Part shown: piece after piece, positions 1 through 29,552 of the stretch
Layout of the letters: each line of letters begins with the position of its first letter
How positions within the stretch are numbered: the first letter of the stretch is position 1
IMG/VR virus record: IMGVR_UViG_3300017963_000617
Span: 1-29,552 of that record
DNA from: a virus
Lineage: Duplodnaviria; Caudoviricetes
Reading direction: 5' to 3' (one strand)
Length of the DNA stretch: 29,552 bases
Position numbers and translations under genes: made by a program
The notes under the pieces: generated by a model
Told to the model about the DNA's origin: nothing
What the model saw: only the letters and a program-made list of their open reading frames with translations
Database searches by the model: none

Positions 1-34
1 AAATTTCAAGACACCTTGATTTTTATTCTGAACA

Positions 35-376
35 CTACTGACGAACGACTTCAAAAATTCCACCCATAGAAACGACCAGATCTCCAAACGCCTGTTGCGC
101 CGGGTCGACCTTGCCGGACATCTTGATTTCCTTTGCGACGACCTGCGCGATTGTCATTCCGACCATTTCGTTCGTTATTTCAACCGCGCGCCAACCGACC
201 AGATCTGACCAACCCTTCGGTGCGGCGCGCAACGGTCGCGGATTTTTAAGGATAAGAATATTTCCTTCGCGCCGGACGGTTTCACCTTGCCAACCGACGC
301 CCGCGTTGATCCGAAAAAGACGCGTGTCGGAAGGTAAGTCCTTCAGAATTTCGCGAATTTTCTGACCTTCGCGCAT
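35..376 (-). CDS. VRR-NUC-family (PD-(D/E)xK) nuclease
   Basis: 113 aa. RLFRINAG, GWSDLVG, xEIK and QxxF...GG motifs are typical of stand-alone phage VRR-NUC proteins. The ATG overlaps the upstream TAA (TAATG). Confidence 0.75.
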   Translation of the reverse strand: MREGQKIREILKDLPSDTRLFRINAGVGWQGETVRREGNILILKNPRPLRAAPKGWSDLVGWRAVEITNEMVGMTIAQVVAKEIKMSGKVDPAQQAFGDLVVSMGGIFEVVRQ

Positions 377-813
377 TAATCACAATCCGCGTTCGCGCAA
401 GGATCTTTTCCGCGCTTCAAGCGCCGAAGGTTTCTGTCAACCAACCAATCATAAAGCTTTTCACGCTTGCGCCGGTCACGAATGCTTGAAGTGACTCGTT
501 TCGCTTCGTCGCGAGCGAAGGCTTTATGTTGAACCGATTGAATTTCGCCAACGGTTTTTTTGACGCCTTGAATCGCTTCGGAATTTTCCTTGACGTTGTC
601 CTTCAGTCGATTAAACCGCTTCCCGCCGCGATCTATTATCGTCTGACGCGATTGTTCAATTCGTTGGTCGACGTCTTCCTTGTCATAGTATTTCATACCT
701 AAAATGAAAGAAAAACCCGCAAGCAAACAACCACCAATAAATAGGATATTTTTCATTGTGGACGAAACCCACTGAACAGAACGCGAAAAGGTCGATTTTG
801 AATTATTTTTCAT
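376..813 (-). CDS. Single-pass membrane-anchored coiled-coil protein (possible lysis accessory or i-spanin-like)
   Basis: Hydrophobic ILFIGGCLLAGFSFILGM followed by a charged helical region and two C-terminal Cys; directly downstream of the transglycosylase. Function is inferred from position only. Confidence 0.4.
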   Translation of the reverse strand: MKNNSKSTFSRSVQWVSSTMKNILFIGGCLLAGFSFILGMKYYDKEDVDQRIEQSRQTIIDRGGKRFNRLKDNVKENSEAIQGVKKTVGEIQSVQHKAFARDEAKRVTSSIRDRRKREKLYDWLVDRNLRRLKRGKDPCANADCD

Positions 814-1297
814 GTCGTTCGCCTTTGAATTTATTGATTGCCCATTGATAATGTCGCCACCTGGCGCGCGGCCGGGTCAAAACCGGTCGGCACTTGCCCG
901 ACATATATCGGTTTATCGCTTCCAGAATCGACGGACAGCGCCGAAGGCATGCCGACAGGTATTCGACGCCGTGTCTGATTTCGTCGGCGACAGACGTCAA
1001 CCTGCGGCCTTTTAACGCTATGCCGTGAACCTGCATCAATCCAAGTTCGCCCTTTTTGCCGACGACGCCGGGTCGAAAACTGGATTCAAATTGGATCATG
1101 ACGGCGGTCAGCATGGGATCAACCTTGTTTTCCGCTGATATTGTAATTATCGGATTGACCAATTCCAGCGCAGACGCGCGTTTTGAAGGGCGGACGTCTT
1201 GCTTGTTGTGATCAATATAGGCGCGAACCGCGTCGGTTTCGGTCGCCCAAACCGGCAATGATGCAAGTAAAAGGGCGATTGCAACGTAAAATCGCAT
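803..1297 (-). CDS. SLT-family lytic transglycosylase (endolysin) with N-terminal signal peptide
   Basis: Motifs QFESSF (catalytic Glu), GLMQV and RYMSG (variant of AYNAG). Start re-called to ATG 1297 (MRFYVAIALLLASLPVWA), just after the fibre stop at 1299; the track start at 1393 overlaps the fibre gene. Confidence 0.85.
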   Translation of the reverse strand: MRFYVAIALLLASLPVWATETDAVRAYIDHNKQDVRPSKRASALELVNPIITISAENKVDPMLTAVMIQFESSFRPGVVGKKGELGLMQVHGIALKGRRLTSVADEIRHGVEYLSACLRRCPSILEAINRYMSGKCRPVLTRPRARWRHYQWAINKFKGERHEK

Positions 1298-1298
1298 A

Positions 1299-2741: not shown

Positions 2742-2750
2742 TGTTTCACC

Positions 2751-3856: not shown

Positions 3857-3938
3857 TTTTGTGTCTCCTGGTTTGCCTAGTTTAGCAAATGAAAAAAAAA
3901 TTGTGTTTTGCCGGGTCGCAACCCGACGCCTTTTATTG

Positions 3939-6878: not shown

Positions 6879-8276
6879 TTAAACAAAAATCACGCCGCCG
6901 GACTTCGCCATTTCGCCTTGTTTTAATACATAGGAAGGTATAAATATACCAACAACAAGACCGAAACCAACCGTTCCGGCGGAACCGCCGACGGGTTCGA
7001 TAATATCCTGAACAACCGACGAAACCGTCAAGTCGGTTATTGTGTTGTTTTTGTCCGACTCGAAATCAAGACCAGTTATAAACGGACGCATCTCGCGGGC
7101 GTATTCATCCAGCGCCGTTTCAATATCGCTTTCGACCTGCGTCTGAATTGCCGGGTCAACAACTAGGTCGCGAACTTCAAAATAAAACGTCGTCCGTTCT
7201 ATGGATTCGACAAAAAGCGTTTCGTCGGTCTCCCCCAAAGGCGGCCGGGTTCGCCCGGTGTCGGGATTTGTATTTATATTGTCGCGAACGCTCGCAAGCA
7301 ACGCAGGCGGCGCGATTCCGTCCGGATCGATACTTGAAACCGCTTCGACAAAAACCGTCCGGTCGCCAGGAAGCGACTCGTTGTCGCAAACAACGGTCGG
7401 ACCTGCGCCTTCGTTTGCAATAGTCGCCGCAAGCGTCATTTTGTTCGCCGCGACCGAATTGATCGCATAAATCCCGTCATTACTTGCCGACCCTTGAACG
7501 TTGACGGCGTGACCAACTGCAAATTCCGCGTCGGTGAAATCGGTTGTTGTCGAATTGATCGAATTATCCGCACTGGAAAAGAAAATATCCGAACCCGTGA
7601 CCGTGTATTGTCGCGGTTTTCCGGCATATGGAAACGCGTTTTCAACGCCGGTTGTTTGTTCCGCCCAGGTCCGATAGTCCGCCGAATTCCCGCCGCCGCC
7701 GACCGTCCTGATTTCGGTCAGGATTCGCCGCCGATATGATTCGTCACTTTCTTTTTCAACCCCTAGTTCGTTGACAGCCGTTACCGTTCCGACGGTTGAA
7801 ATTCCGGGTGTCTGCGTTCCAATCGTCAATGTGTCGCTGACTTCAAGATTTCCCGCCGGGCCGGTTGTCCGCGCGGTGATATCCAGCGTTACGACGCCGC
7901 CCGCTTCGCTTACGCTTGCGTCGGCCTTGTATCGTTCATTGTTTGCGTCGCCGACCCAATCGACCGTCGAAGGAAGGTAAGCACTTGGATCGGCGTCCGC
8001 TTCGATTTCGAGGTTTGCGGCGTTCGCCGGTCGCCTATAGACACCGTAGTTTTCACCAATTCGATCAAGATCTTCGTCGGTCGCGGTCAGCGCCAGGTTT
8101 TGAAGAACGCGTTCGGCCGCGAACCTGAAAAGCGACGTTCCAAGAAGCGCGTCAATCGCGGCGCAAACCCGCAGAAATGCTCGAGGGATAAGCGGAACCG
8201 ATTGATTCAGCGAATTTTCGTAATTCGTAAGGAATAGATCTTTCAGTTCTTGCGTCGTTGGTATCTTTAGCGCCAT
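6879..8276 (-). CDS. Baseplate J / Mu gp47-like wedge protein with an 80-aa insertion
   Basis: TATDEDLDRIGENYG, GPAGNL, GVEKESDESYRRRIL and GGNSADYRTWA motifs of the baseplate J family. Confidence 0.92.
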   Translation of the reverse strand: MALKIPTTQELKDLFLTNYENSLNQSVPLIPRAFLRVCAAIDALLGTSLFRFAAERVLQNLALTATDEDLDRIGENYGVYRRPANAANLEIEADADPSAYLPSTVDWVGDANNERYKADASVSEAGGVVTLDITARTTGPAGNLEVSDTLTIGTQTPGISTVGTVTAVNELGVEKESDESYRRRILTEIRTVGGGGNSADYRTWAEQTTGVENAFPYAGKPRQYTVTGSDIFFSSADNSINSTTTDFTDAEFAVGHAVNVQGSASNDGIYAINSVAANKMTLAATIANEGAGPTVVCDNESLPGDRTVFVEAVSSIDPDGIAPPALLASVRDNINTNPDTGRTRPPLGETDETLFVESIERTTFYFEVRDLVVDPAIQTQVESDIETALDEYAREMRPFITGLDFESDKNNTITDLTVSSVVQDIIEPVGGSAGTVGFGLVVGIFIPSYVLKQGEMAKSGGVIFV

Positions 8277-8278
8277 GA

Positions 8279-8728
8279 TTAAACCTTTTTATGCGCCGGG
8301 TCGGTCGCCTGGTTGATCCAGTTTTCCCCGTATTTGGTCAAAAGAAGCGTTTCGACGTCCTGACCTGGCGGTTCGATCAAAATTTCGGTGACGCGCAACT
8401 GACCGGTCGGATTCGCCGTGTTCGCCTGAATACGCGTCGCGATTTTTTCCGTTATCATCCATGCAAGGGCCTTTTCCGCCGAATCTCGAAGGTTATTTAG
8501 GTTTGTAAGCGTCACCGGTTCGCGACCGTTAAATTCATAGTCAGAACCGATCTTTTGATTTTCGTCTTGAAACAACACGTTTCCACACCAACCGGGTTCA
8601 GTAAACAGCGAAATAAACGCGGCGTTTTCAAAACCCTGATCCATGACAGGCTGACCGGCATTAAACACAAGGTCTGAACCGTTTTCGGTCAAAATCAACT
8701 TTGGGTCTCCTTGAAATCTGTCCGCCAT
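8279..8728 (-). CDS. Baseplate protein, Mu gp46-like
   Basis: AAFISLFT..GWCG...IGS...AEKALAWM pattern; lies between the spike and J genes. Confidence 0.8.
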   Translation of the reverse strand: MADRFQGDPKLILTENGSDLVFNAGQPVMDQGFENAAFISLFTEPGWCGNVLFQDENQKIGSDYEFNGREPVTLTNLNNLRDSAEKALAWMITEKIATRIQANTANPTGQLRVTEILIEPPGQDVETLLLTKYGENWINQATDPAHKKV

Positions 8729-9234
8729 TATGGAACCTTTATTACGTCAATTTTCGCCGGGTCGATTGTCTTCGTTGACGGGTTCGCTGTAGCGGGCGAC
8801 CCGCCGGTTCCCGGTGCGTAGGCTGTCGCGAATGCGTCCCATTGCGTTTTTAGGTCGTCAAACGCTTCCTTCAACTTTGAAAATCGAACCGCGTTGTCGG
8901 CGTTTCCGTTTATTTCAATTACGCCGCTTGATAGTAAATTCATGAACGCTTTGATCGCGCCTGCGTCGATTGAATAAATTTTTCGTTCGCCTTCGTTCAT
9001 TGACGGTTCGATCCCGTCGTCAACAGCGACACCGACCCGCCAGGAAGAACCAAGGTCGATTACAATCACGCGCGAATCGTTCGGCGGGTTGTAGTCTTCG
9101 CCCGACTGCCTAAACAGTTCGACCGACTGAACGTCGTCCGGATCGGTCAATTCAACCTGAAGGATTAAGACGTTTTTGTCACCGTCGCGATTTTTTCCGA
9201 CGGCGCGTCCGGTGATTCTACCTATCGCCGCCAT
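8728..9234 (-). CDS. Baseplate central spike, Mu gp45/gpV-like
   Basis: LQVE...G...NPP.DS.V.V...G...V.VA.D...EGE..IYS pattern of gp45-type OB-fold spikes; follows the hub gene. Confidence 0.75.
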   Translation of the reverse strand: MAAIGRITGRAVGKNRDGDKNVLILQVELTDPDDVQSVELFRQSGEDYNPPNDSRVIVIDLGSSWRVGVAVDDGIEPSMNEGERKIYSIDAGAIKAFMNLLSSGVIEINGNADNAVRFSKLKEAFDDLKTQWDAFATAYAPGTGGSPATANPSTKTIDPAKIDVIKVP

Positions 9235-10478
9235 GGTTCACCTATTGGTTCGCCTGTGAATACATTCGGCGGAACAATCGACAGTGTCGCCGTCGTTCCA
9301 TTCTTTTCGAAGTTGAATTCAACGCGCCGAATGATAAAATCGAACCCGTCAGGAATAAACAACGACGGCGCCTTGTAAGTAACAAGCGTATTTTCCGACC
9401 ATAGTTCGCCGTTTGGCGAATACCAACTGTCAACCGGAATTTCCATGGTCAGCGCGTCGGCGACCTGTTTCGATCTGCGCCAGTCGGCCGCCGCCTGAAT
9501 ATTTCCCGCGGTTGAATCTTCGGCGGAAAATGTCAGAAATCTTGACTTCGGAATTGCCGTGTCCTTCGCTGTCGCCGTCTTTCGCTTTCGATTTGGACTG
9601 TTCGCAATCGCCTTGTAAACGTTGAACCGCTGTCGACCGTCGAATTTCGCCGCAGAATCCCGAACCGGCGGTTTTCCTTCTTCAAGTGTCCCGACCGGCG
9701 CTCCGGTCGTTTTTGCCTGATAAAATATCACTTCTCCGTCGACTGTTGACGATATCAAAACCGCGCGCTGTGTCGCGAGACCCGCCAAATGTTGAAAGAT
9801 CTTATCCGTCGCGCGCGCCGTTACCTGGTCGAAAATTTCGTTATCGTCGAAATCATAGACAATCGGAATTCCTAAAGGTTCGATCAGTTCCGTCGCCCGG
9901 TCCTTCAGGGTTATTTTTTTCGACTCATAAGGCGGACGCACGGTCGAATCGACAATGTCCGCCGCCGCAGAAGCGCCTTCCAGCGCAACCACGACGCCGC
10001 CTGAACCGCTTGAAGGGTTGACCGAATACAAAACCCCTGTGAATCGTTTCCGTCCGCCTAGATAGCATTTGACGGCCTGATATCCATAAGGCCGGATTAG
10101 TTCAGTTAGTTCAAGGTCTGAAGGGCTCCACTGAAGGGACGCCGCGAACCCGTCCGCGACCGTGTCCATTGTTCGCATTAGTGACGCGCCTTCAACGGGA
10201 ACTTCAGTCCCTTCAATTTCAAAGGTGAACGCGTCAGGATCTTTTCCGACTAAATCGACCGCAAGACTGTTTTCAAGCGCCGCAAGTTCCGGGTCGGTCG
10301 GAATCGTGATCACTTCGCCTGGAAAAATCAGTTCCGGGTTTCCGGACCTTAAAACCGTCTGATTCGCCCTCCAAATCAACCGCCATTTTCGACCGTTTCC
10401 GTATGCCTGCGCCGCGATTCCAGACAGCGTGTCGCCTTCAACGACGATATATTGCTTCCCTTGTGTCGCTTTAGCCAT
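9222..10478 (-). CDS. Baseplate hub (Mu gp44/gpP-like) with N-terminal LysM domain
   Basis: LysM motif YIVVEGDTLSGIA...YGNGRKWRLIWRAN...PELIFPGEVITIP, followed by gp44-like motifs (AADIVDS, DSW..PNGELWSEN). Confidence 0.85.
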   Translation of the reverse strand: MAKATQGKQYIVVEGDTLSGIAAQAYGNGRKWRLIWRANQTVLRSGNPELIFPGEVITIPTDPELAALENSLAVDLVGKDPDAFTFEIEGTEVPVEGASLMRTMDTVADGFAASLQWSPSDLELTELIRPYGYQAVKCYLGGRKRFTGVLYSVNPSSGSGGVVVALEGASAAADIVDSTVRPPYESKKITLKDRATELIEPLGIPIVYDFDDNEIFDQVTARATDKIFQHLAGLATQRAVLISSTVDGEVIFYQAKTTGAPVGTLEEGKPPVRDSAAKFDGRQRFNVYKAIANSPNRKRKTATAKDTAIPKSRFLTFSAEDSTAGNIQAAADWRRSKQVADALTMEIPVDSWYSPNGELWSENTLVTYKAPSLFIPDGFDFIIRRVEFNFEKNGTTATLSIVPPNVFTGEPIGEPWRR

Positions 10479-13736: not shown

Positions 13737-14310
13737 TAATTACCGGCCTCCTTTTCAGATATCATGTTGTGCCAATTGTTGAAATATTTCAGTTCGCCAT
13801 ATTTCAACCTTTTTAGTTCGCTTGGTTGTATCCCTCGGAAGAACAGATTTCCGATCCACTGGTCAACGCGAGGGACTATACTTGCAAAAAAAGCGCACCC
13901 AAGCATTCCGCAATCGATATGTCGACGCCCTTCAGGCGCATTATCACCGCGCCGCCTTCCTTCGACAGACCGCCCAAAAATGAATAGATCTTTCCATGAT
14001 AATCCGATTCCTTGTTGTCTTTCATGGCGATTTTTGAGCGGCCGTCAATTTCGCGGTATTTGATAACGGTCAAGCTTCCTTCTTTTCCGCCTATCGGTTT
14101 CTTTAGATACTGATAGACGTTCAGGGTGTCGTCTTCTTCCTTGATTTCAAGACGTCCCTTTTTGATCGCTTTTAAAAGCTTGTTACAAGATGACGTGATT
14201 GCGTTGTGAACGTTTTCGTCTGAAATGTCGTCAAGATCCAAATCGTAATAGTCAAGCAACGTGTCAAGCTGCTTTTGAGCGTTTTCCTTCGACAATTTTT
14301 TTTCTGACAT
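13736..14310 (-). CDS. Extended tail chaperone (GT / E+E'-type, ~191 aa) produced by -1 ribosomal frameshift at T TTT TTG (13891-13885)
   Basis: The -1 frame is open for 49 codons (ASIVPRVDQWIGNLFFRGIQPSELKRLKYGELKYFNNWHNMISEKEAGN) and its TAA overlaps the tape measure ATG (TAATG). Confidence 0.85.
13876..14310 (-). CDS. Tail assembly chaperone (gpG/gpE-type)
   Basis: 144 aa between tube and tape measure; ends in the slippery sequence CTT TTT TTG. Confidence 0.8.
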   Translation of the reverse strand: MSEKKLSKENAQKQLDTLLDYYDLDLDDISDENVHNAITSSCNKLLKAIKKGRLEIKEEDDTLNVYQYLKKPIGGKEGSLTVIKYREIDGRSKIAMKDNKESDYHGKIYSFLGGLSKEGGAVIMRLKGVDISIAECLGALFLQV

Positions 14311-14329
14311 TGTTCATTTTCCTTTTTTG

Positions 14330-14710: not shown

Positions 14711-14724
14711 TTTTCAAACCTCCT

Positions 14725-17978: not shown

Positions 17979-19196
17979 TCAGACCGCGTTCAGAATGACG
18001 GCGAACGCGTCTGTCTGCGTCGTCGCGAAAATCGGCGCGGCCTGCATGCGCGCGGTAACGCGTTGCCATGATTCCGGCGCGTAAGCGTCAAAAAAGAACA
18101 TTCCAGGTTCAACAGTCATTCCGCCGCCATTGATATTCGGCGGCATGTTCGGCATTGAAACGTCGAAACCGAAAAGTTGTTGATAAAAGGTCCGCCGGGC
18201 CGGAATATCCGGAAGCAATTCGGGCGGTCCGAAGTAACGATCAGCGCGGGCGCCGGAATAACAAACCAAAACCTTCGCGTTCGGCATGTATTTGGTCGCG
18301 GTTCCTGCGCTGTTCGTGTAAACGTCCGAATAAGTGAACATCCAGATTTCGTGTCCGCGCGGCGTCAGAAGGCGCCCACGCGCAGTCATTCCGGCCTCGA
18401 TAAAGCGGGAATAACGCGACGGAACCGGCATTTCCTGAGAGACAAGGATCAGCTCAAATCGCCGGTTGTCGGCCTTCGCGATAAGGTCTGTATTCTTCAG
18501 AAACGCTTCAAACGCGCCTTCGCCGAAAACCGCCATATCCGCGGAAACGTGAGCATTCTCGCGAATCAGATCCCAACAATCGTCAATGTCGCCTAGTGCG
18601 TCAGCCGCGGCGTTCGACCATTGTGTGATCAGCGTCACAAAATGCGCGCTATTCCTTAAAAAATCGTACTGTTGATCCGGGTCGGCGGTTCCAAGAATCG
18701 CGTCCATCTTGCCTTCAAGAACGGACTGCGCCGCCAGGACTTCAAACAGACGGACGGTCCGGCGAACCTGTTCCTGGTGCTCACGAAGCGCAAGCGCGCG
18801 CAAACGTTCCCGTCGCGCCCGCCGTTCGTATGGATTTTCACCGGCAAGGCGATTCAAAAGCTGTGAAGCTTCAATGTCGCCTTCTTCGACTACCAACGGA
18901 AAAACCCGGTTGATATTCGTGAAACGCTGTGACAGTGTGTTTTCCTGCGGCGCGGTAATGAACCGACCGTTTGTCCCGCGCGGTACAAGCGCGGCGATTC
19001 GTTCGTTTGCGCGAATAATGTCGATATCGACAGCGTTCGCGTTTGGCGAATAGATTGTTTGTGAATTTGTTTCCGGCCGTCCGAAGAAGCATTGAAACGC
19101 AGTCGGAACGCCGATCACGCTTTTTTCGTCGAAGGCGTTCGCCATAATGCGCGAATACAAATCGACGGAAAGTGGGTTGGTCTGATAGTCAGCCAT
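17979..19196 (-). CDS. Major capsid protein, lambda gpE family
   Basis: 405 aa with VDIDI...IAALV.R, R..E.LAAQ.VL.GK, QYDF.R..H..TL..QWS...DALGDI and C-terminal MQAAPI motifs; GGAGG SD. Confidence 0.9.
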   Translation of the reverse strand: MADYQTNPLSVDLYSRIMANAFDEKSVIGVPTAFQCFFGRPETNSQTIYSPNANAVDIDIIRANERIAALVPRGTNGRFITAPQENTLSQRFTNINRVFPLVVEEGDIEASQLLNRLAGENPYERRARRERLRALALREHQEQVRRTVRLFEVLAAQSVLEGKMDAILGTADPDQQYDFLRNSAHFVTLITQWSNAAADALGDIDDCWDLIRENAHVSADMAVFGEGAFEAFLKNTDLIAKADNRRFELILVSQEMPVPSRYSRFIEAGMTARGRLLTPRGHEIWMFTYSDVYTNSAGTATKYMPNAKVLVCYSGARADRYFGPPELLPDIPARRTFYQQLFGFDVSMPNMPPNINGGGMTVEPGMFFFDAYAPESWQRVTARMQAAPIFATTQTDAFAVILNAV

Positions 19197-19210
19197 TTTT
19201 AAACCTCCCT

Positions 19211-19648
19211 CTAGTTTTCGAATTCGTCGATTGCGCGTGTCGCTTCGACGTAAATGTTATGGCGTTCAAGTTCGTCGCCAACGGTCAGACCGCTGGAAGT
19301 AATAACGTCCGCCAGGGTTTTGGAATTTTCGATCACAAGCTGATTCACGTCAATTGTGATTTCGCCGCCAACGATGATCGGGATGTCGGGAACGTCGCCC
19401 GCGACCAGTTCCGCCGCCGAAACGTCCGCCTTGATAATTCCGGCGGGAAATTCAGAACCGTCGGAAGCGGTGTTATCCGTAAAAGGAACCCACTTTCCCG
19501 ACGCGCTGATCTTCGACATAAGGGTGTTTTTGACAAGCGCCGCCGAACGGCCCGCGTCGGTCAACAGGGTTTCCGCAGTCTTGACAAGCGGTTCGCCGGA
19601 CAGGACAAACGGAAAATTCGTATAGTCTGTTCTAGTTTGAGCGGCCAT
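19211..19648 (-). CDS. Head decoration protein (lambda gpD-like)
   Basis: TLMSKISASGKWVP...ASDGSE.PAGI motif; lies between protease and capsid genes. Confidence 0.8.
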   Translation of the reverse strand: MAAQTRTDYTNFPFVLSGEPLVKTAETLLTDAGRSAALVKNTLMSKISASGKWVPFTDNTASDGSEFPAGIIKADVSAAELVAGDVPDIPIIVGGEITIDVNQLVIENSKTLADVITSSGLTVGDELERHNIYVEATRAIDEFEN

Positions 19649-19649
19649 C

Positions 19650-20036
19650 TTATTTCACTCCTTTCAAGGCGTCAATCGCCGCCTGAACTTCCGCTTCGTT
19701 TGAAACGGTTCCGTCTTCGGAAATGGTTTCGGTTTCAAGCTGCGCGGGCGTTTCGTCCGGTTGTTCGTCTTGCGCGGCCTTCGCGTTCCTCTCCTCCTTT
19801 AAGGCGTCGAACGCAATAACAGCGCCGGTCAAAACCGCCGGTTCCATGTCGCCCTTCAAAACGTCGCAGGCGATTTTCTTGATCGATTCGGGATAGTCAG
19901 ATCCCGCCAGATAAGGAATCGCCGCCTTGATCGTCGCTTCGGCCTTTTTTGCGCCTTCCGCGAACGCTTCGTTTTTGATCGCTTCAACCTCGCTGGCGAG
20001 ATCTGGCGACTCGTTGATCGCATCCTGCAAATTCAT
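19650..20036 (-). CDS. Nested in-frame scaffolding protein (lambda Nu3-like), 128 aa
   Basis: Internal GGAGG (20046-20042) lies 5 nt before the in-frame ATG 20036; acidic helical sequence; same arrangement as lambda C/Nu3. Confidence 0.7.
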   Translation of the reverse strand: MNLQDAINESPDLASEVEAIKNEAFAEGAKKAEATIKAAIPYLAGSDYPESIKKIACDVLKGDMEPAVLTGAVIAFDALKEERNAKAAQDEQPDETPAQLETETISEDGTVSNEAEVQAAIDALKGVK

Positions 20037-21298
20037 TTTTTCCTCCATTTGTTTTCCCGCGCCAGCGGGTTGGTTTGCAGTTTTTTTGTCTTCGCGTTCT
20101 ATCTTTTTTATATAGCGATCTATAACCGCTTGAACTTTTGGTTTGTCGGCGCTTGGTATCTGAACGCCGCCGCGGGCGCCCTTCATGGCGCCGTTTGCGG
20201 CAAAAACGCCGCGGCGAATGGCAACCATGCGTCCGTCGACGATATCCGCAAACGGAAGCTTATAGGCGCCGAAGTTTTCGGCGTTTTCGGCGTCGTACCA
20301 AAAAAACGCTTTCTTGTAATTCGCGCCCGGTTTTTCTGTCGACCCTGTCGCGCGCCTGACGCGCGTCTGTGCCGCGCCCGAATCCCATGGTTTGTCAACT
20401 ATCGGAAGATCTGCGAACGGCGTCGCGCCCGCTGTTATGGTCTCTTGAACACTTGCCGACGCTGTCGGTTCGCCGACGGTTTCTTCAATTCTTCCGAATA
20501 TCGATCCGTTGACGCTGTCTATCATGCCAACCGACAGCGCGTCCGCGCGGTTTTCGTCCGGATCTTTCGCGACTAGCAACGCGCCGCGACCGAAATCTTT
20601 GATCACTTTTTGTTCGGTGACGCCGCGACCGTCTGCGACCCTATTAATGAAGATCCGTTCGATTGCGTCCGCGCGCTGTTGTATCGTTTCGCGACCTGCT
20701 TTGGTATCCGCGTCAGGCGCCTTTTCAGGCGCGTTCCGCGAAATGACATTGACTTTTTTGATCCCAAACGCCTTTTCGCGTTCTGACGTATCAATTTGAG
20801 TAATTACAACACCGATTGAACCGCTTTCAACCGTTGGCGAAATCGCGCGAATTTCCGACGCCGCGCTTGCGATCCAATAACCCGCGCTCGCGATCATGCC
20901 GTGATTTTCAGCGATAACGTGTTTTTTCATCGCCAGGTCTGCGACAGCCTGTCGGACTTCTTCGACGCCATTCACCGCGCCGCCTGGCGTATCCATGACA
21001 AGGCGAACGGTTTTGACCTTATCCGTTCGCGCTGCGACGTCAAGCGCGTCAATTATCTGTGAATAGGCTGTTCCGTCAAATCCAAACAAGCGCGCCAACG
21101 GCGGCGGCCCGTCCTTCGACAACGCGCCGACAATCTTGATCGTCGCGCTGTCGTCGTCTATCTGAATGATGGATCTAGGCGCGGCGAATTGTTCCTTCGC
21201 CGATAGTGTTCAGCTATGCGTTCCGCGTCGGCCGTTATATTGTGGACCTGGTCTAAGTATCCGACAATATAGTTTTCTTCACATGCCCATATTTTCAT
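19650..21298 (-). CDS. S49-family prohead protease (lambda gpC-like); reading frame broken near 21209-21210
   Basis: DTPGG, IASAGYWIASA and GSIGV motifs. The natural start MKIWACEE at 21298 (TAATG-coupled) is out of frame with the catalytic domain by one base; the restored length would be 549 aa. Confidence 0.85.
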
Positions 21299-21465
21299 TA
21301 GCGACCAACCTTCTTTTCGATCTTGGCAACCAACGATTTCAGATCTTCAACGGCGTCGGCCAGTTCTTCAACCGCTTCGCGCAACTGCGGAACATTTGTC
21401 GCGCCTTGCGCCTTCGTCTTCGCGTCCGCCGCCTTGTTGATAACTTGTGGATTTACGTTTGCCAT
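21298..21465 (-). CDS. Small coiled-coil protein, 55 aa (not in ORF track)
   Basis: MANVNPQVINKAADAKTKAQGATNVPQLREAVEELADAVEDLKSLVAKIEKKVGR; TAATG overlaps at both ends; clear heptad pattern. Confidence 0.8.
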   Translation of the reverse strand: MANVNPQVINKAADAKTKAQGATNVPQLREAVEELADAVEDLKSLVAKIEKKVGR

Positions 21466-22031
21466 TATTCAACCTCGATCAATGTGTCGCCGTTCGCGAC
21501 CACGTACCATTCGCTGACGTCCTGTTGAACTAAGTATTCGTCGGCGTCAAGCGAATCATATTCGCCGTCTGTCTTTTCATACGCGTTGATCCCAAACGTG
21601 TCAGACGTCGAATTGTAAACAAGCGAAATAAGCACGTATTTGGTCAGCGTTTCGTCCGCGACAACCGTCGTTTCGTCGTCAATGTCAAGTTCGCTGACCG
21701 TTGTCGTGATAACAAGACCCGCCGCCGTGCTACTGACGATCAATTCTGCGGCGTAATTAGCGGGGAGAATTTCGGCTTTAAGGTGTTCGCCGGTTTCGAT
21801 TTTCGTTATCAAAACGCTTGTATGATCCGCAACTAACCCGTCAAGGATCGTGTCGTCTGCGCCTGTCGGTTCGGTCTCAAAAATCACTTCGCAGTTGTCC
21901 GACGGTCCGTCAACGTTTATTCCGGTTAGTTCAACAGAAATCGCGGATTTTACGATCTGGATTTTTAAAACGTCAGCCGAAACGACGTCGTTTGGAAAAT
22001 CGGTTATCGCGTAATTTCTTGAAACCGTCAT
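21465..22031 (-). CDS. Hypothetical acidic beta-rich protein, 188 aa
   Basis: Start re-called to ATG 22031 (ATGA overlap with the upstream stop). Confidence 0.75.
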   Translation of the reverse strand: MTVSRNYAITDFPNDVVSADVLKIQIVKSAISVELTGINVDGPSDNCEVIFETEPTGADDTILDGLVADHTSVLITKIETGEHLKAEILPANYAAELIVSSTAAGLVITTTVSELDIDDETTVVADETLTKYVLISLVYNSTSDTFGINAYEKTDGEYDSLDADEYLVQQDVSEWYVVANGDTLIEVE

Positions 22032-22588
22032 GAAACCCTCCAAACTTCGATCCATGCGTCTTTTATCGACTGTGTGTTTCCGCCTGTACCGTCGCGATAT
22101 TGAACCTTGAATTGTTTTGATGCACCGGAAAAAACAACTTCATGCACGCTTGAAAAACCCGGATAATTATCGGCGCTGTCTTTGATTCTCATTTTCCATT
22201 CGTCGCCAATTATTCCCGCGTCTGTCACATTGTACAGCCGCGCGAACCCGGCCTTGTCTGCATTGTTTACCATCGCACCACACGCGATGCGATACGTTCC
22301 CGTCAACGCGGGCGTCGTCAATGTGACTTTGTCCTGGTAAGTTGCAAGCGTGGTTTGTGATTGCGCCAGCGATTCCGCGCGTTGATAGTCCTGACCAAAA
22401 ACGTTCAGGCGCGGATCGTTTCCTTCACAAATCGTATTCGCTGACGATCCATAGGTCGGCGTCAAAACCGCGTCGACGTTGTCACCGGTATTCGTGATCC
22501 CGTTCGACCCCGAAACCGTGTTTGTTAACCCGCCGCCTGCGGCGACGGTCGGCCCTATTGTATGTTCACAGCATTCCTTGGTCGTCAT
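22028..22588 (-). CDS. Short fibre/spike-like protein, 186 aa
   Basis: YGSSANTICEGNDPRL resembles the G.TA.TV..GND.R phage fibre motif, followed by an all-beta C-terminal domain; ATGA overlap. Confidence 0.55.
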   Translation of the reverse strand: MTTKECCEHTIGPTVAAGGGLTNTVSGSNGITNTGDNVDAVLTPTYGSSANTICEGNDPRLNVFGQDYQRAESLAQSQTTLATYQDKVTLTTPALTGTYRIACGAMVNNADKAGFARLYNVTDAGIIGDEWKMRIKDSADNYPGFSSVHEVVFSGASKQFKVQYRDGTGGNTQSIKDAWIEVWRVS

Positions 22589-22845
22589 AAATCCACCCTA
22601 ACCGATCCGGCCTTTTTTTTCGGATACACATAAACATCGATTGCGGAAGGCGCCGAAATTTTCGCCGACTGGCCGACCCATGGTTGCGCGTCTGACAGGT
22701 CGGTCGGCGCCGGGTTAGTCGTCGCGCGATAGGTTGTCCAGTATTCCAGATCTGTTTTTTGCTTCCAAAGTTGACCAGTTGAAACGCCGGTTGCAACCTT
22801 CGTCCATTGATTCGCCGGACACGGTACCAATACAGGATCAGCCAT
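22585..22845 (-). CDS. Hypothetical small beta protein, 86 aa
   Basis: Start re-called to ATG 22845 (MADPVLVPCPANQW) with GGAGG at 22858-22854; overlaps the end of the portal gene. Confidence 0.75.
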   Translation of the reverse strand: MADPVLVPCPANQWTKVATGVSTGQLWKQKTDLEYWTTYRATTNPAPTDLSDAQPWVGQSAKISAPSAIDVYVYPKKKAGSVRVDL

Positions 22846-24469
22846 TGTTTGGGCCTCCTTCGTTGTTTGTCGATTTTTGCCATGGGGGGGACGCAAGTTC
22901 CGCGAATTCGCGTTTTAGCTTCGCCCGGTTTGCCTTGCCCGACGACCCGTTCAGGTTGCGCGCGACCCTGTCAAGCGTCTGTCCGCCCATGGTCGCATAT
23001 AACTGATCGGCCTTCGCCGTTTTCGCCGGGTCGATATTCGGCATAGGCGCCGAAATCCAGCTATGACACAACCAAGCGGCGCGCAAGCGCGGGTCGGTCC
23101 AACCTGGCGCGACAATTCGCCCGGTCGCGACTTCGCCCGATAACCACATTGCGTAAGCGGGCGACAGAAAATCAGAATCAAGTTCAGCTTCCCAAATTCC
23201 GCGAATTCGATCCCAAAGGATAAGCGCCGCGCGCGAAGCGGAATAATTCTGTCCGAATTGCATCTTGACGCGTTCAAGCGGAATCGACATGGACGCGGAC
23301 AAATACGACGCGACGGCGTCCATATATTCCGGATATTGCGGAAGTGGCGAACTGTCTTGAAACGGTTTCAACCGTTCGCCTTCTTGCAACGAAAAAACAC
23401 CGACCGAACCGGGAACGTTCAAGGTCGCTTGCGGCAAGCGGTGGAATCGAACGGGTTCTGACATCGCCGCCGCCGCTTCCGCCGGAACGGTATTTTCGTC
23501 AATGGTCGGAATAGGCCCAGCGTTCCCTTCGGTTATGTCTTCAAAAGGATTCGACGCCGCGTTGTGTTCGCTTGGTTCATTAACCATCGTAATATTCGAT
23601 TGATTAATGCACTTCTTTAGGGTTGCAAGGGCATAGTCTTCCATATTTTCCAAATTTTGCAAAATATGGGAAATTCGCGAAAACCCGCGCCCCTGACCTG
23701 GAAATTCGGGTTGATATCCATGGATCATAAAAACGCGCTCCGACCTGGCGCCGACGCGCGGAACCCTGACTTCCTTGTAATTCATTTTTGCGTCGCGAAC
23801 CCAAACCTTGAAGGCCGTTTCGCGACCTGCGGCGTCACGCTCGATTCCGTCCTTGTCGGTCTGAAATCCATATGTCGAAGTATATTCAGAACCGCGAATT
23901 TGATTCGGGTCTATCAATAAAACTTGAAGCGGATTCAAAATGTCGCGCCGGTCTGAATAATAGAACCGTGAAAAATATTCCCCGTCGCGCTGTTGAAAAT
24001 TCACCGCTAGTCGTTGCGCTTGGTAAAAATTCATTGTTTCGTCGCGATAGGAAGTTTTCGAATTCGCCCAAATATGGAACCGTTCGTTAACGTCTTCCGA
24101 CCATTCTTCGGCCTGATCTTCCGAAATACCCAAAATTCCGGCGGCCGGTTCCGCCTGCAATTTCAGACCACGGTCGACGACGCTGTTTCCATACGTTTCG
24201 ACAATCGCCTTTCCTAAAGGACTTTCGAGGTAAGCTGACCTGGCGTTTTGTCTCAACAGCCAGTGATCAAGGATCGGCGACTGACCAGTTGACGACATTC
24301 CCCAATCCCATTTTGATCCGTCGGAACCGGTGTCGCCATAATATCCGGCGTAACCGTAACCGCCATAACCAAAACCATATGACGCGCCGACTTGCCCGAA
24401 ACCGTTCAGCGCGGCGTCGCTGGAAAACCATTCCTTGAAAAACTTCCCTATGGTATCAAGCGCACCCAC
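22838..24469 (-). CDS. Portal protein, lambda gpB family
   Basis: LRQNARSAY, DGEYF, DGIERDAAGR..A, GQGRGFS, NYSASRAAL and IDPAK motifs. Start re-called to GTG 24469, overlapping the gpW TAG. Confidence 0.93.
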   Translation of the reverse strand: MGALDTIGKFFKEWFSSDAALNGFGQVGASYGFGYGGYGYAGYYGDTGSDGSKWDWGMSSTGQSPILDHWLLRQNARSAYLESPLGKAIVETYGNSVVDRGLKLQAEPAAGILGISEDQAEEWSEDVNERFHIWANSKTSYRDETMNFYQAQRLAVNFQQRDGEYFSRFYYSDRRDILNPLQVLLIDPNQIRGSEYTSTYGFQTDKDGIERDAAGRETAFKVWVRDAKMNYKEVRVPRVGARSERVFMIHGYQPEFPGQGRGFSRISHILQNLENMEDYALATLKKCINQSNITMVNEPSEHNAASNPFEDITEGNAGPIPTIDENTVPAEAAAAMSEPVRFHRLPQATLNVPGSVGVFSLQEGERLKPFQDSSPLPQYPEYMDAVASYLSASMSIPLERVKMQFGQNYSASRAALILWDRIRGIWEAELDSDFLSPAYAMWLSGEVATGRIVAPGWTDPRLRAAWLCHSWISAPMPNIDPAKTAKADQLYATMGGQTLDRVARNLNGSSGKANRAKLKREFAELASPPWQKSTNNEGGPNNG

Positions 24470-24771
24470 TAGCAAGAAGTCCTTCCGAACGGTCCGCGCT
24501 TGCGGCGCAGGTTCATGTTCACGACGCCCGCGCATTCCAAACGCCGATAAAGTGAATCAATTTCGGATTCCAGCGAATCAATGACGCCCTTCATTTCGTC
24601 CAGCTTGCGCCGCCAGGTCTGTTGACTTCCCTCGTTACTGTCGAACCGATAGCGTTCCGCGTCGGTTTCAAGCGCGCGTTCAAAGGTTGCGTACAATTTT
24701 TCAAGCTGAATTTGTTTTGTTTGGATAAGCGCGATGATTCGCGCCCGCTTCGCGGTGTCACGACACGACAT
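24469..24771 (-). CDS. Head-completion protein (gpW-like)
   Basis: 100 aa with a helix, beta-hairpin (ERYRFD..GSQQTWRR.L..M...I..LE.EI), helix layout; directly upstream of the portal gene. Confidence 0.7.
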   Translation of the reverse strand: MSCRDTAKRARIIALIQTKQIQLEKLYATFERALETDAERYRFDSNEGSQQTWRRKLDEMKGVIDSLESEIDSLYRRLECAGVVNMNLRRKRGPFGRTSC

Positions 24772-24849: not shown

Positions 24850-24940
24850 ATCTTTTTTGCGTCAGATCTCGAGGTAGGACCGCAGGAAAAAAACGCAGGT
24901 CATGCGTTTTTCCGTGTTTTTTCGGGTTATAATGGAAATT

Positions 24941-25246: not shown

Positions 25247-25252
25247 ATAATT

Positions 25253-25285: not shown

Positions 25286-25353
25286 GTGTCCGCCAAAGGA
25301 GAAGGCCAAGACTTCCCAATGGTCGCAAATTTCCGCGTTCCTGTCAAACATAC

Positions 25354-25394: not shown

Positions 25395-25449
25395 GGATGA
25401 GGGGAAACCTCAATGCTGAATTCAAGTCTGAACTATTCCGATAGACCTG

Positions 25450-27498
25450 TCAAGCAACCGACCGACGCGCCGTCTTCCGTTCAAGATAGTCCAAAACATA
25501 AGGCGTCCGGATCAGCTTTTCGACCGCTTCCTTCGCGGCGCCGTCTTTTATCTTCGCGCGTTGCGCCTGTAGCACCTGCGCCGACAACCATATTTCCTGC
25601 AAACAAATGTTATAGACCTTCAGGTCTAACGCTTCGTTCCGGCGACTGCTAGGTTTCCAAAATGTTCCGTCGTCGCGCTGTTCTTCGGCTGTCAACATCT
25701 TGTAATAGTCGTCAGGATAGTCGGACGGGTGATCCATGAAATTCGGTCGCTGCGGATACGCCGCGCGCCGCTTGATTTTCAAATTTTGGTAAACCTGTTT
25801 TTTGTACCAGTTGGTAGAAATTTGGTATGTTGTCGTTCCCGACTTCTTGCGTTCGCGAAATCGGTCGGTATCTGAATACATTTCCGCGTCGTGAACTTCG
25901 TCGATATTGCCCGTCGTTTTTTTGAGCGACCGAAATCCTTTAATCGGAAACGTGTTGTTCCAACGCTGGCAAAACTGAAAAACGATGTTTTGAACCTTCC
26001 CGTCCGCCGAATCGATCCCGATTATCTGCGGCGAAAACCGAAATCCGTCCGACCGGTGAAACACAAGACCGCCCTTCGCCGCCCAATTGTGCATTTGTTC
26101 CCAGGCGCCCGCGAACGGGTCGTTGATCGGACCTCTAAAAACTTTGTACACAATCGACCACGTCCGATATCCGCGACCATGCGCGCAGACCTCCAGTTCA
26201 AGACGCGGGCCGAATTCGGTCGACCGCTTGCGTCCCGCCTGAACGTCAACCGCCATAGTCAGAAACAACGGGCCGGGTTGGTAATCCGGAATTATGCCGG
26301 ACTTGTAGTCGCCCGCTTGGTCCTGAATTTCGCGCGGGTTCGGTTTGCTTCCAAGTTCCCGATAGGGCAAACCCAAATCGGTGTTCACAAACGCGCGACG
26401 CTTCAACGGTTGATCTTCGCTGTTAATATGCGTCTGAATAATCGTCGCCCAGTCCTCCATTAATGAATAAACCGCGCTGATATGATACGACCGCCGATAG
26501 GGCGAACCGCTGCGCGCCGTCGGTTCCCATTGTCCCGCCTGAACCATTTCGTATTTTTTCGATTCGGGAATAGGTTCGTCGCAGTTCGCGCATTGATAAT
26601 AAATCGACCGTTCGTCAAGCAATCCGTCGGTCAATTCCCACTTCAACCCCGGCCCGTTGTCGGTTTCGTCCTGATCGTCGCTGTAACCGAATTCAAGCGT
26701 CTGTCGTTCGCCGCAAAACGGACACGGGACTTGATACCTTCGCCGGTCGCCGGATTCGTACAAAGGCCATATATGCGATTCTTCGAAGGTCGTCGGCGTC
26801 GACGTATAAAGGATTTTTTTGCGCTTCTTCCAGGCTTTTGTCCTTGCTTCGGCAATGCTGACCGGGTCGCCTTCCTTGTCGACGTTCCAAGCATAACCGT
26901 CGACTTCGTCAAGAATCAGGTTCCGGATCGAATCCATACGCATCCCGGCCGCGCTTCCCGCCGTCGTCATGTCCAACGACCCGCCCGGAAATTCTTTTGA
27001 AAACATTGTATTTCCGGTGCGACGCTGTCCTTTCATGACGTGTTGTGGTACAAGCTTACCTTCCAACCCGCAGGAAACAAGAAGCGGCGTCAGTCGTTTA
27101 TTGACCCACTTCTTCAACAGCTTTTCGTTCGCTGTACAATACAAAATCGGACCGGGAACGCTTCTAATCACATACGCGATCAGGTTTTCGATCATAGCGG
27201 TCGCGCCGACCTGCGCGGACTTCGCAAGGATTATTTCGCGAATCGGTGAACTTGCCGACAGGCATTCCATGATTTCAACTAAATAAGGCGTTCGTTCGTT
27301 TTTCCATGGCCCTGGATAGGGCGTCCCGCGCGGAAGGCGTCGGTGCTTCGCTGCGAATTCCGCAACCGTCAAAGTCGGAATTCGGGTCGGACAGTCGTCA
27401 ATCATGCGTTGAAGGTCAGCATATATCCGCGCGCATTCGGCGGGCGGAATGACTAACGTCGTTTCAATCCGCTTCGGTTTTTGGTTCTTCCTGGTCAT
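25450..27498 (-). CDS. terL: Terminase large subunit, lambda gpA family
   Basis: RTPYL.EIM, Walker A KSAQVGAT, Walker B LILDEVD, STPT coupling motif, CPFC/CANC, nuclease AVDVQ and RNEALD motifs. Confidence 0.96.
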   Translation of the reverse strand: MTRKNQKPKRIETTLVIPPAECARIYADLQRMIDDCPTRIPTLTVAEFAAKHRRLPRGTPYPGPWKNERTPYLVEIMECLSASSPIREIILAKSAQVGATAMIENLIAYVIRSVPGPILYCTANEKLLKKWVNKRLTPLLVSCGLEGKLVPQHVMKGQRRTGNTMFSKEFPGGSLDMTTAGSAAGMRMDSIRNLILDEVDGYAWNVDKEGDPVSIAEARTKAWKKRKKILYTSTPTTFEESHIWPLYESGDRRRYQVPCPFCGERQTLEFGYSDDQDETDNGPGLKWELTDGLLDERSIYYQCANCDEPIPESKKYEMVQAGQWEPTARSGSPYRRSYHISAVYSLMEDWATIIQTHINSEDQPLKRRAFVNTDLGLPYRELGSKPNPREIQDQAGDYKSGIIPDYQPGPLFLTMAVDVQAGRKRSTEFGPRLELEVCAHGRGYRTWSIVYKVFRGPINDPFAGAWEQMHNWAAKGGLVFHRSDGFRFSPQIIGIDSADGKVQNIVFQFCQRWNNTFPIKGFRSLKKTTGNIDEVHDAEMYSDTDRFRERKKSGTTTYQISTNWYKKQVYQNLKIKRRAAYPQRPNFMDHPSDYPDDYYKMLTAEEQRDDGTFWKPSSRRNEALDLKVYNICLQEIWLSAQVLQAQRAKIKDGAAKEAVEKLIRTPYVLDYLERKTARRSVA

Positions 27499-28712
27499 AA
27501 CGCTAAAGCAAGTTGGCGCGTCGCACGGTCGACCCGTTCAACCGCCGCGTCGAAATAGTCCTTGTTTTTTTCTATCCCTATGAACGAAACGTTTTCTTCA
27601 TGCGCGGCGATTCCCGTCGTCCCGCTTCCCATGAACGGATCTAGCACCGTTCCGCCCGGCGGCGAAACAAGGCGGATCAGATAAGACATTAACTTAACCG
27701 GTTTGACCGTCGGATGCCGGTTGTCTTCGCCGCGTTCCGCCGCGCTTGCCTTCGCAACGTAGAAAAAACGCGAAGCGGTTCCAGTGTCATTGAACCCAAA
27801 AGGTTTACCATTTGTCACACCGGAAAAATCACCATAACAACCTTTTGATTTGTTCCTTCCTTCTGTTCCGTATCCGCCGCCAACGCCCGCGCTTTGCCGG
27901 TCCAGTTCCGCAACCGGACAGCCGTCGGAACATTCGCCCGGTTCGCAATCTGGCGAATGCGTCAGGATTACGTTCGCGGGCCAGCGGCCGGACGCGGGAA
28001 CAAAATCGTCGCCGCCCTTCCCAGTGTTAAACATTGAACCGCCTTTTGTCGTGTTGCGGTCCCGCGTGAAATAATTTCCTTCAATCCGACAACCGTCGAT
28101 ATTCAGCGCGCCGGTTCCATGCTCCAGAACGTTCTTGACCACTGTCCCCTTGAACGGTTTCCTGCCCACGCAGATGGGCTCATTGGCGGGCTTAAGCGCG
28201 GTGCCCCATCCGCTCCACTGAGCGGCGGCGGGTGTGGCGGGGGCGGTTATGTTGCGTATTAGCGGATCAGTGTTTTTATTAGGTCCACTTATCCCCCGCC
28301 CGTTGCTGGAGTTCCCGCGAATATCATTCGTTAAAGTTTCCACGCCCACAACAGGTCGCACTTCGCCCGCCGCCTTGTCAATCGCCTTCGACACGTCAAG
28401 CGACTTCGGAAATCCTGAACCATACAACCATTGTATTTGGTCGCGTATTTCAAAACCGCCGTCTTCGATATTGACGACCATTCGATGATATGTCCGCGTC
28501 CCGCCGAATGACAAAAGATGTCCGCCAGGTTTCAACACGCGACAGACTTCGCGCCATAGGTCAACCGGCGGAACGTCATAATCCCAATTTTTTCCCATGA
28601 ACGATAAACCATAAGGCGGATCGGTCACAACCGCGTCGACCGAATTCGACTCCATGGTTTGCAAAACTTCAAAACAATCGCCGTGAATCAATTCGCGCGT
28701 CGGTTGTTTCAT
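27495..28712 (-). CDS. Orphan DNA amino-methyltransferase (N6-adenine/N4-cytosine, beta class)
   Basis: GDC, VTDPPY near the N-terminus, HPTVKP and VLDPFMGSGTTG near the C-terminus; ATGA overlaps with both terS and terL. Confidence 0.93.
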   Translation of the reverse strand: MKQPTRELIHGDCFEVLQTMESNSVDAVVTDPPYGLSFMGKNWDYDVPPVDLWREVCRVLKPGGHLLSFGGTRTYHRMVVNIEDGGFEIRDQIQWLYGSGFPKSLDVSKAIDKAAGEVRPVVGVETLTNDIRGNSSNGRGISGPNKNTDPLIRNITAPATPAAAQWSGWGTALKPANEPICVGRKPFKGTVVKNVLEHGTGALNIDGCRIEGNYFTRDRNTTKGGSMFNTGKGGDDFVPASGRWPANVILTHSPDCEPGECSDGCPVAELDRQSAGVGGGYGTEGRNKSKGCYGDFSGVTNGKPFGFNDTGTASRFFYVAKASAAERGEDNRHPTVKPVKLMSYLIRLVSPPGGTVLDPFMGSGTTGIAAHEENVSFIGIEKNKDYFDAAVERVDRATRQLALAL

Positions 28713-29377
28713 GCCTTCTTGCCCTTGGTTTTCTTCCCGTCAACCGGCGGTTCAACCGGCGGGACCGGTTCAACCGGAACGTCGCCTTCGTCCGGCGACG
28801 TCATAATATACTTCGCACCGTCGACCGGCGGCGAAACCGCTTCGGCCGCGCGCTTCGCCTTTTCAATTACGTCGCTGATCTGCGTCTTCAATTCTTCTTC
28901 AATCGCGCGTTCCGGTGTTTCACTGGCGCGCGCTTTCATCCATATGATATCAGCTATCGATTCCGGCATATAGATCAAGTCGTTCAAAAGAAAATCGTAA
29001 AACGCGCCGAATTTCTGTTGAATCGCTTCGCAATCGATAATGACGCCTAGCTTTTCGGCATATTCCAAGGACTTCAGGTCAGCTTGCGCCTTCTTGTAAC
29101 GCGTATCTTCGACGCCCTTCTGAACCGGGTCGAACCCTTCGCCTTCAAACGCGCGTTGCGCCGCTTCCCGAATTACCTGACCGCGACCCTTCTTCGCGTT
29201 CTTCTTCTTGTCCTTCGCCTGATAACGAATCGACTTCGGCGCGTTCGCGTCAACCTTCCCGTCGACCAGTTCGATTTCGCCGCGCGTCACCGCGTTCTGA
29301 ATCGCGACCGGCGTCACGTCGCAGATCTTCGCGAACCTGTACTTTGTTACAAGATTTTGTTCAGGCGCCGCGTCCAT
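28709..29377 (-). CDS. terS: Terminase small subunit (Nu1-like)
   Basis: N-terminal HTH-like VTKYRFAKICDVTPVAIQNAVTRG, central KAQADLKSLEYAEKLG helix and Pro-rich tail; first gene of the packaging operon. Start re-called to ATG 29377. Confidence 0.75.
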   Translation of the reverse strand: MDAAPEQNLVTKYRFAKICDVTPVAIQNAVTRGEIELVDGKVDANAPKSIRYQAKDKKKNAKKGRGQVIREAAQRAFEGEGFDPVQKGVEDTRYKKAQADLKSLEYAEKLGVIIDCEAIQQKFGAFYDFLLNDLIYMPESIADIIWMKARASETPERAIEEELKTQISDVIEKAKRAAEAVSPPVDGAKYIMTSPDEGDVPVEPVPPVEPPVDGKKTKGKKA

Positions 29378-29383
29378 AATGAT

Positions 29384-29417
29384 ATAATAAACCAACCTTT
29401 GACAGAAAACAACTGTC
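29384..29417 (-). promoter_or_regulatory. Candidate terS promoter (-10 TATTAT at 29389-29384) with inverted repeat GACAG-N7-CTGTC (29401-29417)
   Basis: AT-rich non-coding region; the -10-like box lies 6 nt before the ATG and the inverted repeat covers the expected -35 position. Confidence 0.4.
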
Positions 29418-29552
29418 CAAAAAACGCTTATATTCTATGTACTTAAAGGAAATCACGAATTTCGGACACAATGAATATTTTTCCACTTAGAGTGTATTAT
29501 ATTCAATCAAAATCCGTTATAGTTGCGAAAGCTGGCGCGACGCGACATACAG

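Follow-up and report, generated by a model that had tools for sequence, protein, structure and literature searches.

Gene content of the window and its loss of GAG/CTC

The stretch of DNA analyzed here (the window; 29,552 nucleotides, positions 1 to 29,552 of the virus record IMGVR_UViG_3300017963_000617, Duplodnaviria; Caudoviricetes) is the virion module of a tailed phage, and it has lost most occurrences of the trinucleotide GAG and its complement CTC on both strands. Its 30 genes, on the minus strand, encode the terminase, portal, protease, capsid, contractile tail, Mu-like baseplate, and a methyltransferase. An initial annotation, made from the letters alone, had described the loss as strong and strand-symmetric and had ascribed it to selection at the DNA level. 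A 48-kb record (G001), which is 94% complete, encodes capsid and terminase proteins identical to those of the window and contains the same sequence at both window ends.

The genes for the small (28709-29395) and large (25450-27498) terminase subunits flank a gene for an N6/N4 DNA methyltransferase (27495..28712), assigned by a Pfam match (PF01555); among relatives, the presence of this gene does not track GAG depletion. The head module (17979..24535) encodes the portal (22838-24535), S49 protease (19650-21122), decoration protein (19211-19648), and major capsid protein (17979-19196), and the contractile tail module (6879..16293) encodes the sheath (14725-16293), tape measure (11778-13736), Mu-like baseplate hub (9222-10478), and baseplate J protein (6879-8276). 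A transglycosylase gene (803-1393) and a small endonuclease gene (35-376) follow, the latter with homologs in the relatives G003, G007, and G008, which show no GAG purge. All of these are on the minus strand; the sole plus-strand open reading frame (ORF) among the ORFs scanned is an endonuclease-like gene at 24902-25246, between the terminase and head genes. Beyond the window, G001 carries helicase, primase, RecT, YqaJ, radical SAM, and PAPS-reductase genes and an IS66 element, and no polymerase or integrase match was present among the 28 ORFs scanned there. Cultured relatives are distant, the sheath being approximately 30% identical.

The whole window contains 39 GAG and 80 CTC, a total of 119 (4.0 per kb); base composition would give 961 (32.5 per kb) and dinucleotides 623. 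The observed/expected ratio (O/E) relative to dinucleotides is 0.19 (z -20), the lowest of the 32 trinucleotide pairs, and the maximum in any 1-kb bin is 9. The hand counts of the initial annotation (4, 2, and 0 in three stretches) were exact on recount.

To separate this loss from codon usage, we compared the 30 genes with synonymous-codon shuffles. On the coding strand, 38 of 553 Glu codons are GAG and 13 of 692 Leu codons are CTC. The results showed that the out-of-frame triplets are also far below the shuffles, both for GAG (19 vs 116 and 17 vs 55 in the two frames) and for CTC (16 vs 40 and 7 vs 142), and the depletion is present in all six frames and on both strands. The earlier view that Glu codon preference or avoidance of Shine-Dalgarno sequences would not suffice was thus borne out. 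It was also correct that survivors lie in Shine-Dalgarno sequences (GGAGG occurs 14 times on both strands, and a GAG lies ≤22 bases upstream of the start in 9 of the 30 genes), although their contribution is minor.

Codon alignments were made with orthologs of G003, the nearest complete relative (capsid 70% identical, 98% complete), in which the GAG/CTC O/E is 1.05. The window phage retains 14 of 502 aligned GAG/CTC. The replacements reach each triplet position in the frame where that position is the wobble base, and they include transversions of the middle base (GAG to GCG in 28 of 58 and CTC to CGC in 34 of 80 cases in that frame). Counted against G003 by strand, the numbers are 80/445 and 39/282 on the coding strand and 39/298 and 13/110 on the template strand, showing that both strands are purged alike.

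In a conditional-logit model of 11,931 G001 codons, in which amino acids were fixed and codon bias was left free, GAG was selected first (×0.08), followed by CCA (×0.24), GATG (×0.18), TA (×0.20), GCA (×0.38), and AGCC (×0.27), and further by CCC (×0.32), CAC (×0.25), GAAAG (×0.24), and palindromes, all avoided independently of GAG. Among 6-base palindromes, GGATCC and CCCGGG are absent from the window, and CGATCG (×0.04) and GCCGGC (×0.07) are strongly avoided. GATC, AGATCT, and CATG are over-represented in the window and may be targets of the phage methyltransferase.

The IS66 element of G001 (L009:1376-3778) lies just past window position 1, with an approximate insertion point at window 1..9, where the window contig ends. 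It contains 88 GAG/CTC in 2,470 bases (O/E 0.95). Both the empty site and the IS66-containing site, the latter with an 8-base target duplication, were seen in assembled reads, and the insertion, carried by part of the phage population, is therefore recent; the read runs that show this polymorphism may be the window's own source and are not independent of it. As a control, the element is a mere proxy for host DNA.

Thus, the GAG/CTC loss is the result of selection on DNA and of neither codon use nor positional mutation bias, because it survives codon and dinucleotide control, affects all three positions, and spares the recently inserted IS66. On this point the k-mer and codon-shuffle controls proposed at the outset did not make the depletion vanish.

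Avoidance of Type I-spaced half-site pairs

The two half-sites of Type I restriction enzymes place 6–9 bases between the methylated adenines, according to published tables. We counted pairs in which the A of one of nine words faces the T of another, by distance and orientation, with same-phase distances of 14-40 supplying the expectation. Words depleted either in this phage or in related ones served as the pool from which the nine were drawn. In G001 without IS66, 231 convergent pairs were found at A-to-T distances of 7-10, as compared with 398 expected (0.58, z -8.4); in the window alone, the numbers were 145 and 252. Divergent (1.16) and direct (1.09) pairs of G001 and the distances 5, 6, 11, and 12 were undepleted. 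An unbiased scan of the 32 A-containing registers gave its ten largest deficits for GCA, CCA, GTA, CAG, CAC, CAT, TAC, TAG, CTA, and GAG, nearly the same list as the nine words.

Five undepleted control words were flat in G001 (1.03), and codon shuffles of G001 gave 0.98 ± 0.03, as compared with 0.58 for the real sequence. The same index was 1.01, 0.98, and 0.98 in samples of 38-40 kb from three bacterial metagenome-assembled genomes (MAGs), and 0.90, not significant, in IS66. The deficit is family-wide, with an index below 1 in 71 of 73 loci (median 0.86). Single bipartite words also stand out, e.g., CGA-N8-TCC with 6 vs 40 (without frame correction), and the surviving GAG triplets are short of a partner T (130 vs 164).

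When the words were counted where no T stood at distance 7-10, GCA (0.99), CAG (0.99), and CCA (0.84) of G001 came close to expectation, with CAC at 0.58 and GATG at 0.33; control distances were flat. Thus, Type I-spaced half-site pairs are avoided, which explains why GCA, CCA, and CAG are scarce but not why GAG is. A variant in which the partner is a Type I half-site with N4-methylcytosine received no support, as G around the survivors at distance 7-10 was at 0.87-1.03 when pooled, without clear depletion. In the window, GATG/CATC and AGCC/GGCT are lost in all flanks and are low even without a Type I partner (0.30 and 0.19).

Loss of bipartite Type I sites resembles that reported for Staphylococcus aureus plasmids and a phage (Roberts 2013, PMC3753647), with the difference that the counts presented there are of single known sites and ours are of pooled half-site pairs at distance 7-10. 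The data indicate that phage genomes bear a pooled, orientation-specific mark of Type I restriction, of which a site-by-site survey reported none. Measuring this mark requires no knowledge of the host, and the mark distinguishes phages that apparently escape by site loss from others.

The trait in the phage family and in cultured phages

Across 73 family loci of at least 9 kb, the median GAG O/E was 0.92, and seven loci were below 0.5, among them the record of the window itself and two pairs of loci that are duplicates or nearly so. The purge was deeper in three cultured phages, PA73 (L189), KL1 (L201), and RcTitan (L190), which contain 28, 29, and 10 GAG/CTC (O/E 0.03, 0.04, and 0.01), respectively. 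Their Type I indices were 0.52, 0.70, and 0.67. Where T was missing at the Type I distance, GAG was still at 0.04, 0.04, and 0.01, and CAG was at 1.23, 0.97, and 0.70. Like the window phage, these three combine the GAG purge with loss of CAC and TAG and with the Type I geometry; unlike it, they belong to other genera, have known hosts, and show stronger palindrome loss as well as the deeper purge. For PA73 and RcTitan, the two of the three that were compared with G001, a helicase was the only homolog found.

A further panel consisted of eight hand-picked cultured phages, five of them as 22-25 kb stretches. RcCronus (O/E 0.37) and PY223 (0.31) displayed partial GAG depletion together with the Type I signal, two Vibrio phages displayed the Type I signal only, and phiKMV, 119X, D3, and PB1 displayed neither. 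In this hand-picked material, a Type I index of 0.87 or lower was present in each of the 10 phages or loci whose GAG O/E fell below 0.5 (the window and G001 counted as one). RcTitan and RcCronus, which grow on Rhodobacter capsulatus, are cultured phages with the trait, and the question is directly testable there.

Some relatives avoid other words. In G007 (L183-L185) and G009 (L188), GAG is enriched (1.35 and 1.42) and GAAG is strongly avoided (×0.14 and ×0.08). L016 and G006 (L180-L182) are low-GC relatives that lose GAG, GAC, and CG together, and G006 is without any GAGAAG, GATGAC, or CTGCAG. L142:1-5362 comes from a family member that is short of AAG (0.14), ATG (0.49), and GAA (0.55) with a Type I index of 1.04; this loss resembles avoidance of the protospacer adjacent motifs (PAMs) of type I-E and I-C CRISPR systems. 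In PA73, 20 of the 28 survivors lie in GGAG and 24 of 28 in GAGT, which suggests a conserved functional word.

Candidate causes of the GAG purge

We hold it to be probable on balance, with limited confidence, that the GAG purge results from cumulative selection by many Type I, Type IIG, and Type III specificities sharing a GAG core. A large and shifting set of host restriction-modification specificities with this core would have selected the phage over a long time. Each GAG would lie in a context read by some Type I (as a half-site), IIG, or III enzyme (e.g., of the CNGAG type) of the host population, each site would be a small cost on entry into a new strain, and synonymous changes would remove sites singly until a fraction remained. 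Phages without a general anti-restriction protein would be expected to show the purge most strongly; among the 59 ORFs scanned there were zero Pfam matches to anti-restriction families and one partial PHROG match to a Lar-like family. A continuum may run from context-dependent loss (RcCronus, L026, and PY223) to near-complete loss (KL1, PA73, and RcTitan), with the window phage at a late stage.

Published specificities point in the same direction. In the S3 table of Blow 2016, GCA (27) and GAG (24) are the commonest of the 12 triplets counted beside the Type I spacer, followed by CGA (19), AAG (17), CCA (16), GAC (15), CAG (15), CAC (12), GAA (9), AAC (8), ATG (6), and TAG (1). The 49 'gag' rows of that table comprise 7 Type I, 14 Type III, 12 Type IIG, and 16 palindromic Type II motifs; the shortest among them is ggAg, none has three bases, and several of the 26 contiguous III/IIG motifs are of the CNGAG form. 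In G001, CNGAG is approximately three times rarer than the other contexts lacking the Type I partner T (10/809 vs 80/2071, P 1e-4), and cross-validated GAG retention ranges from 0.05 to 0.34 by context, a 7-fold range. In RcCronus and L026, retention in the best context decile is 1.30 and 1.24, with the worst contexts near zero, and the worst contexts differ from phage to phage. Since the best contexts are normal in these two, loss that depends on context can by itself push GAG to the bottom of the triplet ranking, and G001 seems to lie further along the same line.

Several findings weigh against this explanation. The strongest is that 19 published IIG/III motifs fail to predict retention in G001 (0.16 when covered, 0.18 when uncovered); the same motifs are predictive in G005, L026, PY223, and G006, and L002 and RcCronus show the opposite trend. 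GAG without a T at the Type I distance still stands at 0.16 (90/570) in G001, as compared with 1.19 in G003, and Type I enzymes therefore cannot account for most of the GAG loss. Even the best context decile of G001 retains only 0.34 of its GAG, as compared with 1.45-2.37 for the other four words. The margin of GAG over other words in the motif table is modest, and a 5- to 100-fold gap does not follow from it alone; many published IIG/III motifs terminate in CAG or AAG, yet these words lack blanket depletion. The Type I index and GAG O/E are uncorrelated across the 73 family loci (rho 0.09, P 0.47). Finally, the survey of Rusinov 2018 (PMC6286503), which resembles our data in that word loss is at the DNA level and strand-symmetric and that palindromes are avoided, reports no site-by-site avoidance of Type I/IIG sites across phages, whereas here Type I avoidance appears in aggregate and the top word has three bases. 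For an origin from many enzymes, a lineage-specific pool of specificities and saturation must be assumed. The case is best filed as an extreme form of restriction-site avoidance, in which a Type I component has been measured and a GAG-specific remainder lacks an explanation. Of the two options raised by the initial annotation, many overlapping sites have been shown for the Type I geometry, and an unusually short target may apply to GAG alone.

Such a target would be read by a three-base (GAG/CTC) host defence that adds to ordinary restriction, acts at any one site with low probability, and spares modified host DNA, as in bacteriophage exclusion (BREX) type 4, an Ssp-like phosphorothioate system, or an undescribed methylation. 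We think it possible but rather unlikely that this is the cause. All eight GAG-containing 4-mers are low (0.08-0.21 of their G003 frequency), including ACTC (0.08), TCTC (0.14), GCTC (0.19), and CCTC (0.21); GAG retention varies little (0.11-0.18) among the four classes of the published-motif test; the purge is equal on both strands; and GAG lacking the partner T falls to 0.01-0.04 in PA73, KL1, and RcTitan while the corresponding CAG remains at 0.70-1.23. There is also precedent: BREX type 4 of Bacteroides salyersiae is reported to modify ACTC, CCTC, and TCTC, an NCTC motif whose effective core, CTC/GAG, is the word purged here (Yuan 2026, PMC12914056). C*CA and C*AG are known three-base phosphorothioate motifs, and GAAG, which is likewise a BREX type 4 motif, heads the list of avoided words in G007 and ranks in the top three in G009.

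However, the NCTC enzyme as described prefers CCTC over TCTC over ACTC, and the phage shows the reverse order, ACTC being lost most and CCTC least. The system was described in gut Bacteroidota; in the same report the anti-phage activity of NCTC variants is untested and brxPCZL occurs in 0.6% of a general genome set (PMC12914056). SspE has been described as sensing modified host DNA, which need not select on the number of phage sites. Phages with intermediate depletion lose GAG by context and keep normal best contexts, and for a phage facing an efficient cutter with 181 sites remaining there would be no gradient to climb. In its broad form, with a widespread undescribed bacterial defence reading GAG/CTC that drove unrelated phages of Pseudomonas, Burkholderia, Rhodobacter, and Bordetella as well as the window phage to purge the triplet, this idea is again a tentative one that we consider less than probable. 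One triplet is lost far beyond any other in unrelated phages, which leaves two options: GAG is the principal hub of restriction specificities, or there is a three-base defence. Escape on one strand only, as with Type III or MANTIS-type systems, is ruled against by the equal purge of both strands; the asymmetric, methylation-based MANTIS/Type III targets also shape phage genomes, but they are described as 6-base targets, often with one-strand loss (bioRxiv 10.64898/2026.09.23.753747).

It is improbable that GAG serves a host CRISPR-Cas system as its PAM, GTG and GGG being weaker variants, and that escape mutations accumulated. A PAM would have the three-base length and act on both strands, and the order GAG, GTG, GGG parallels the AAG, ATG, AGG of Escherichia coli type I-E, which tolerates GAG for interference; the loss of AAG and ATG in L142 without a Type I signal indicates that the family may harbor PAM-like purges as deep as this one. 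Published PAM depletion (Kupczok and Bollback 2014, PMC4246573; Ortega-Sanz 2025, PMC12174588) likewise concerns short words lost on both strands after codon control, but it is mild, with group medians of approximately 1.5-fold at most (the strongest at log2 -0.59, as compared with about -2.4 here), and GAG is no listed consensus PAM, being absent from the PAM table and text of Vink 2021. Moreover, the canonical AAG and GAA/TTC are enriched in the phage (1.42 and 1.57 of G003), and the CC/GG word, which corresponds to the I-F PAM, stands at ×0.46 in PA73, as compared with ×0.01 for GAG. No CRISPR repeats were found among the loose ends listed, though short joints looked like spacer pairs, and short matches checked as host spacers at ten loci from 837 genomes (401 + 135 + 301) included none in an array.

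An enzyme of the phage itself, either a GAG nuclease cutting host DNA or a modifier harmful at GAG, is a very doubtful cause of the site loss. G001 does encode a methyltransferase, small endonucleases, a radical SAM protein, and a PAPS-reductase protein with short BrxP/SspD matches. No G001 protein of at least 70 amino acids, however, is common to the depleted G005, G006, PA73, or RcTitan and missing from G003, G007, and G008, with the sole exception of a weak 104-amino acid match to G005 (E 3.5e-5). The methyltransferase family was not found in the depleted G005 and G006 and was found in G007, G011, G012, and G013, four relatives without the purge, and the methyltransferase was rejected as the cause; the phage modification system suggested by the initial annotation is thus not supported. 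In addition, part of the phage population carries IS66 with its 88 GAG/CTC.

Mutational bias, codon preference, or Shine-Dalgarno avoidance without any defence is scarcely credible: in favor of it, Glu is 93% GAA and the AG and TA dinucleotides are low, but each triplet position is changed when it is the wobble base, only 14/502 sites are kept, GAG remains at ×0.08 with amino acids fixed, and the replication genes of the depleted phages differ (no polymerase found in G001, PolA in G005 and G006, and an annotated polymerase in RcTitan and KL1); codon shuffles, G003 alignments, and the conditional-logit model largely refute this reading.

The search for a host of the window phage was made through IS66. 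Its closest named homolog, which carries only the label 'Proteobacteria bacterium', shares 72% identity; in 251 genomes of the phylum of G016 there was no match at E 1e-80, and plasmid matches were approximately 34% identical. The element may resemble myxobacterial IS66. Six family MAG contigs were not used as host pointers, their taxonomy being mixed, and an Atlas search with one uncharacterised protein matched only unnamed viral clusters. In the literature, we found no description of GAG/CTC purging or pooled Type I avoidance, with most subscription journals outside the search; further sources used were PMC8482600, PMC11931770, PMC12707154, PMC6568314, PMC9646914, and PMC3874165.

Three regions of G001 beyond the window had additional features. 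The radical SAM and PAPS-reductase genes stand side by side at L009:13024-15632, and neither was matched in the seven phages compared; the PAPS-reductase protein matches BrxP (E 6e-16) and SspD (E 4e-9) over short stretches. Inside the PAPS-reductase gene, at L009:14621-15043, assembled contigs show several short skips, which are either variants or assembly artefacts. The region L009:17000-18700 contains small ORFs and an HNH gene, and two of these have a higher GAG content (9-15 per kb), suggesting that they are possibly later acquisitions.

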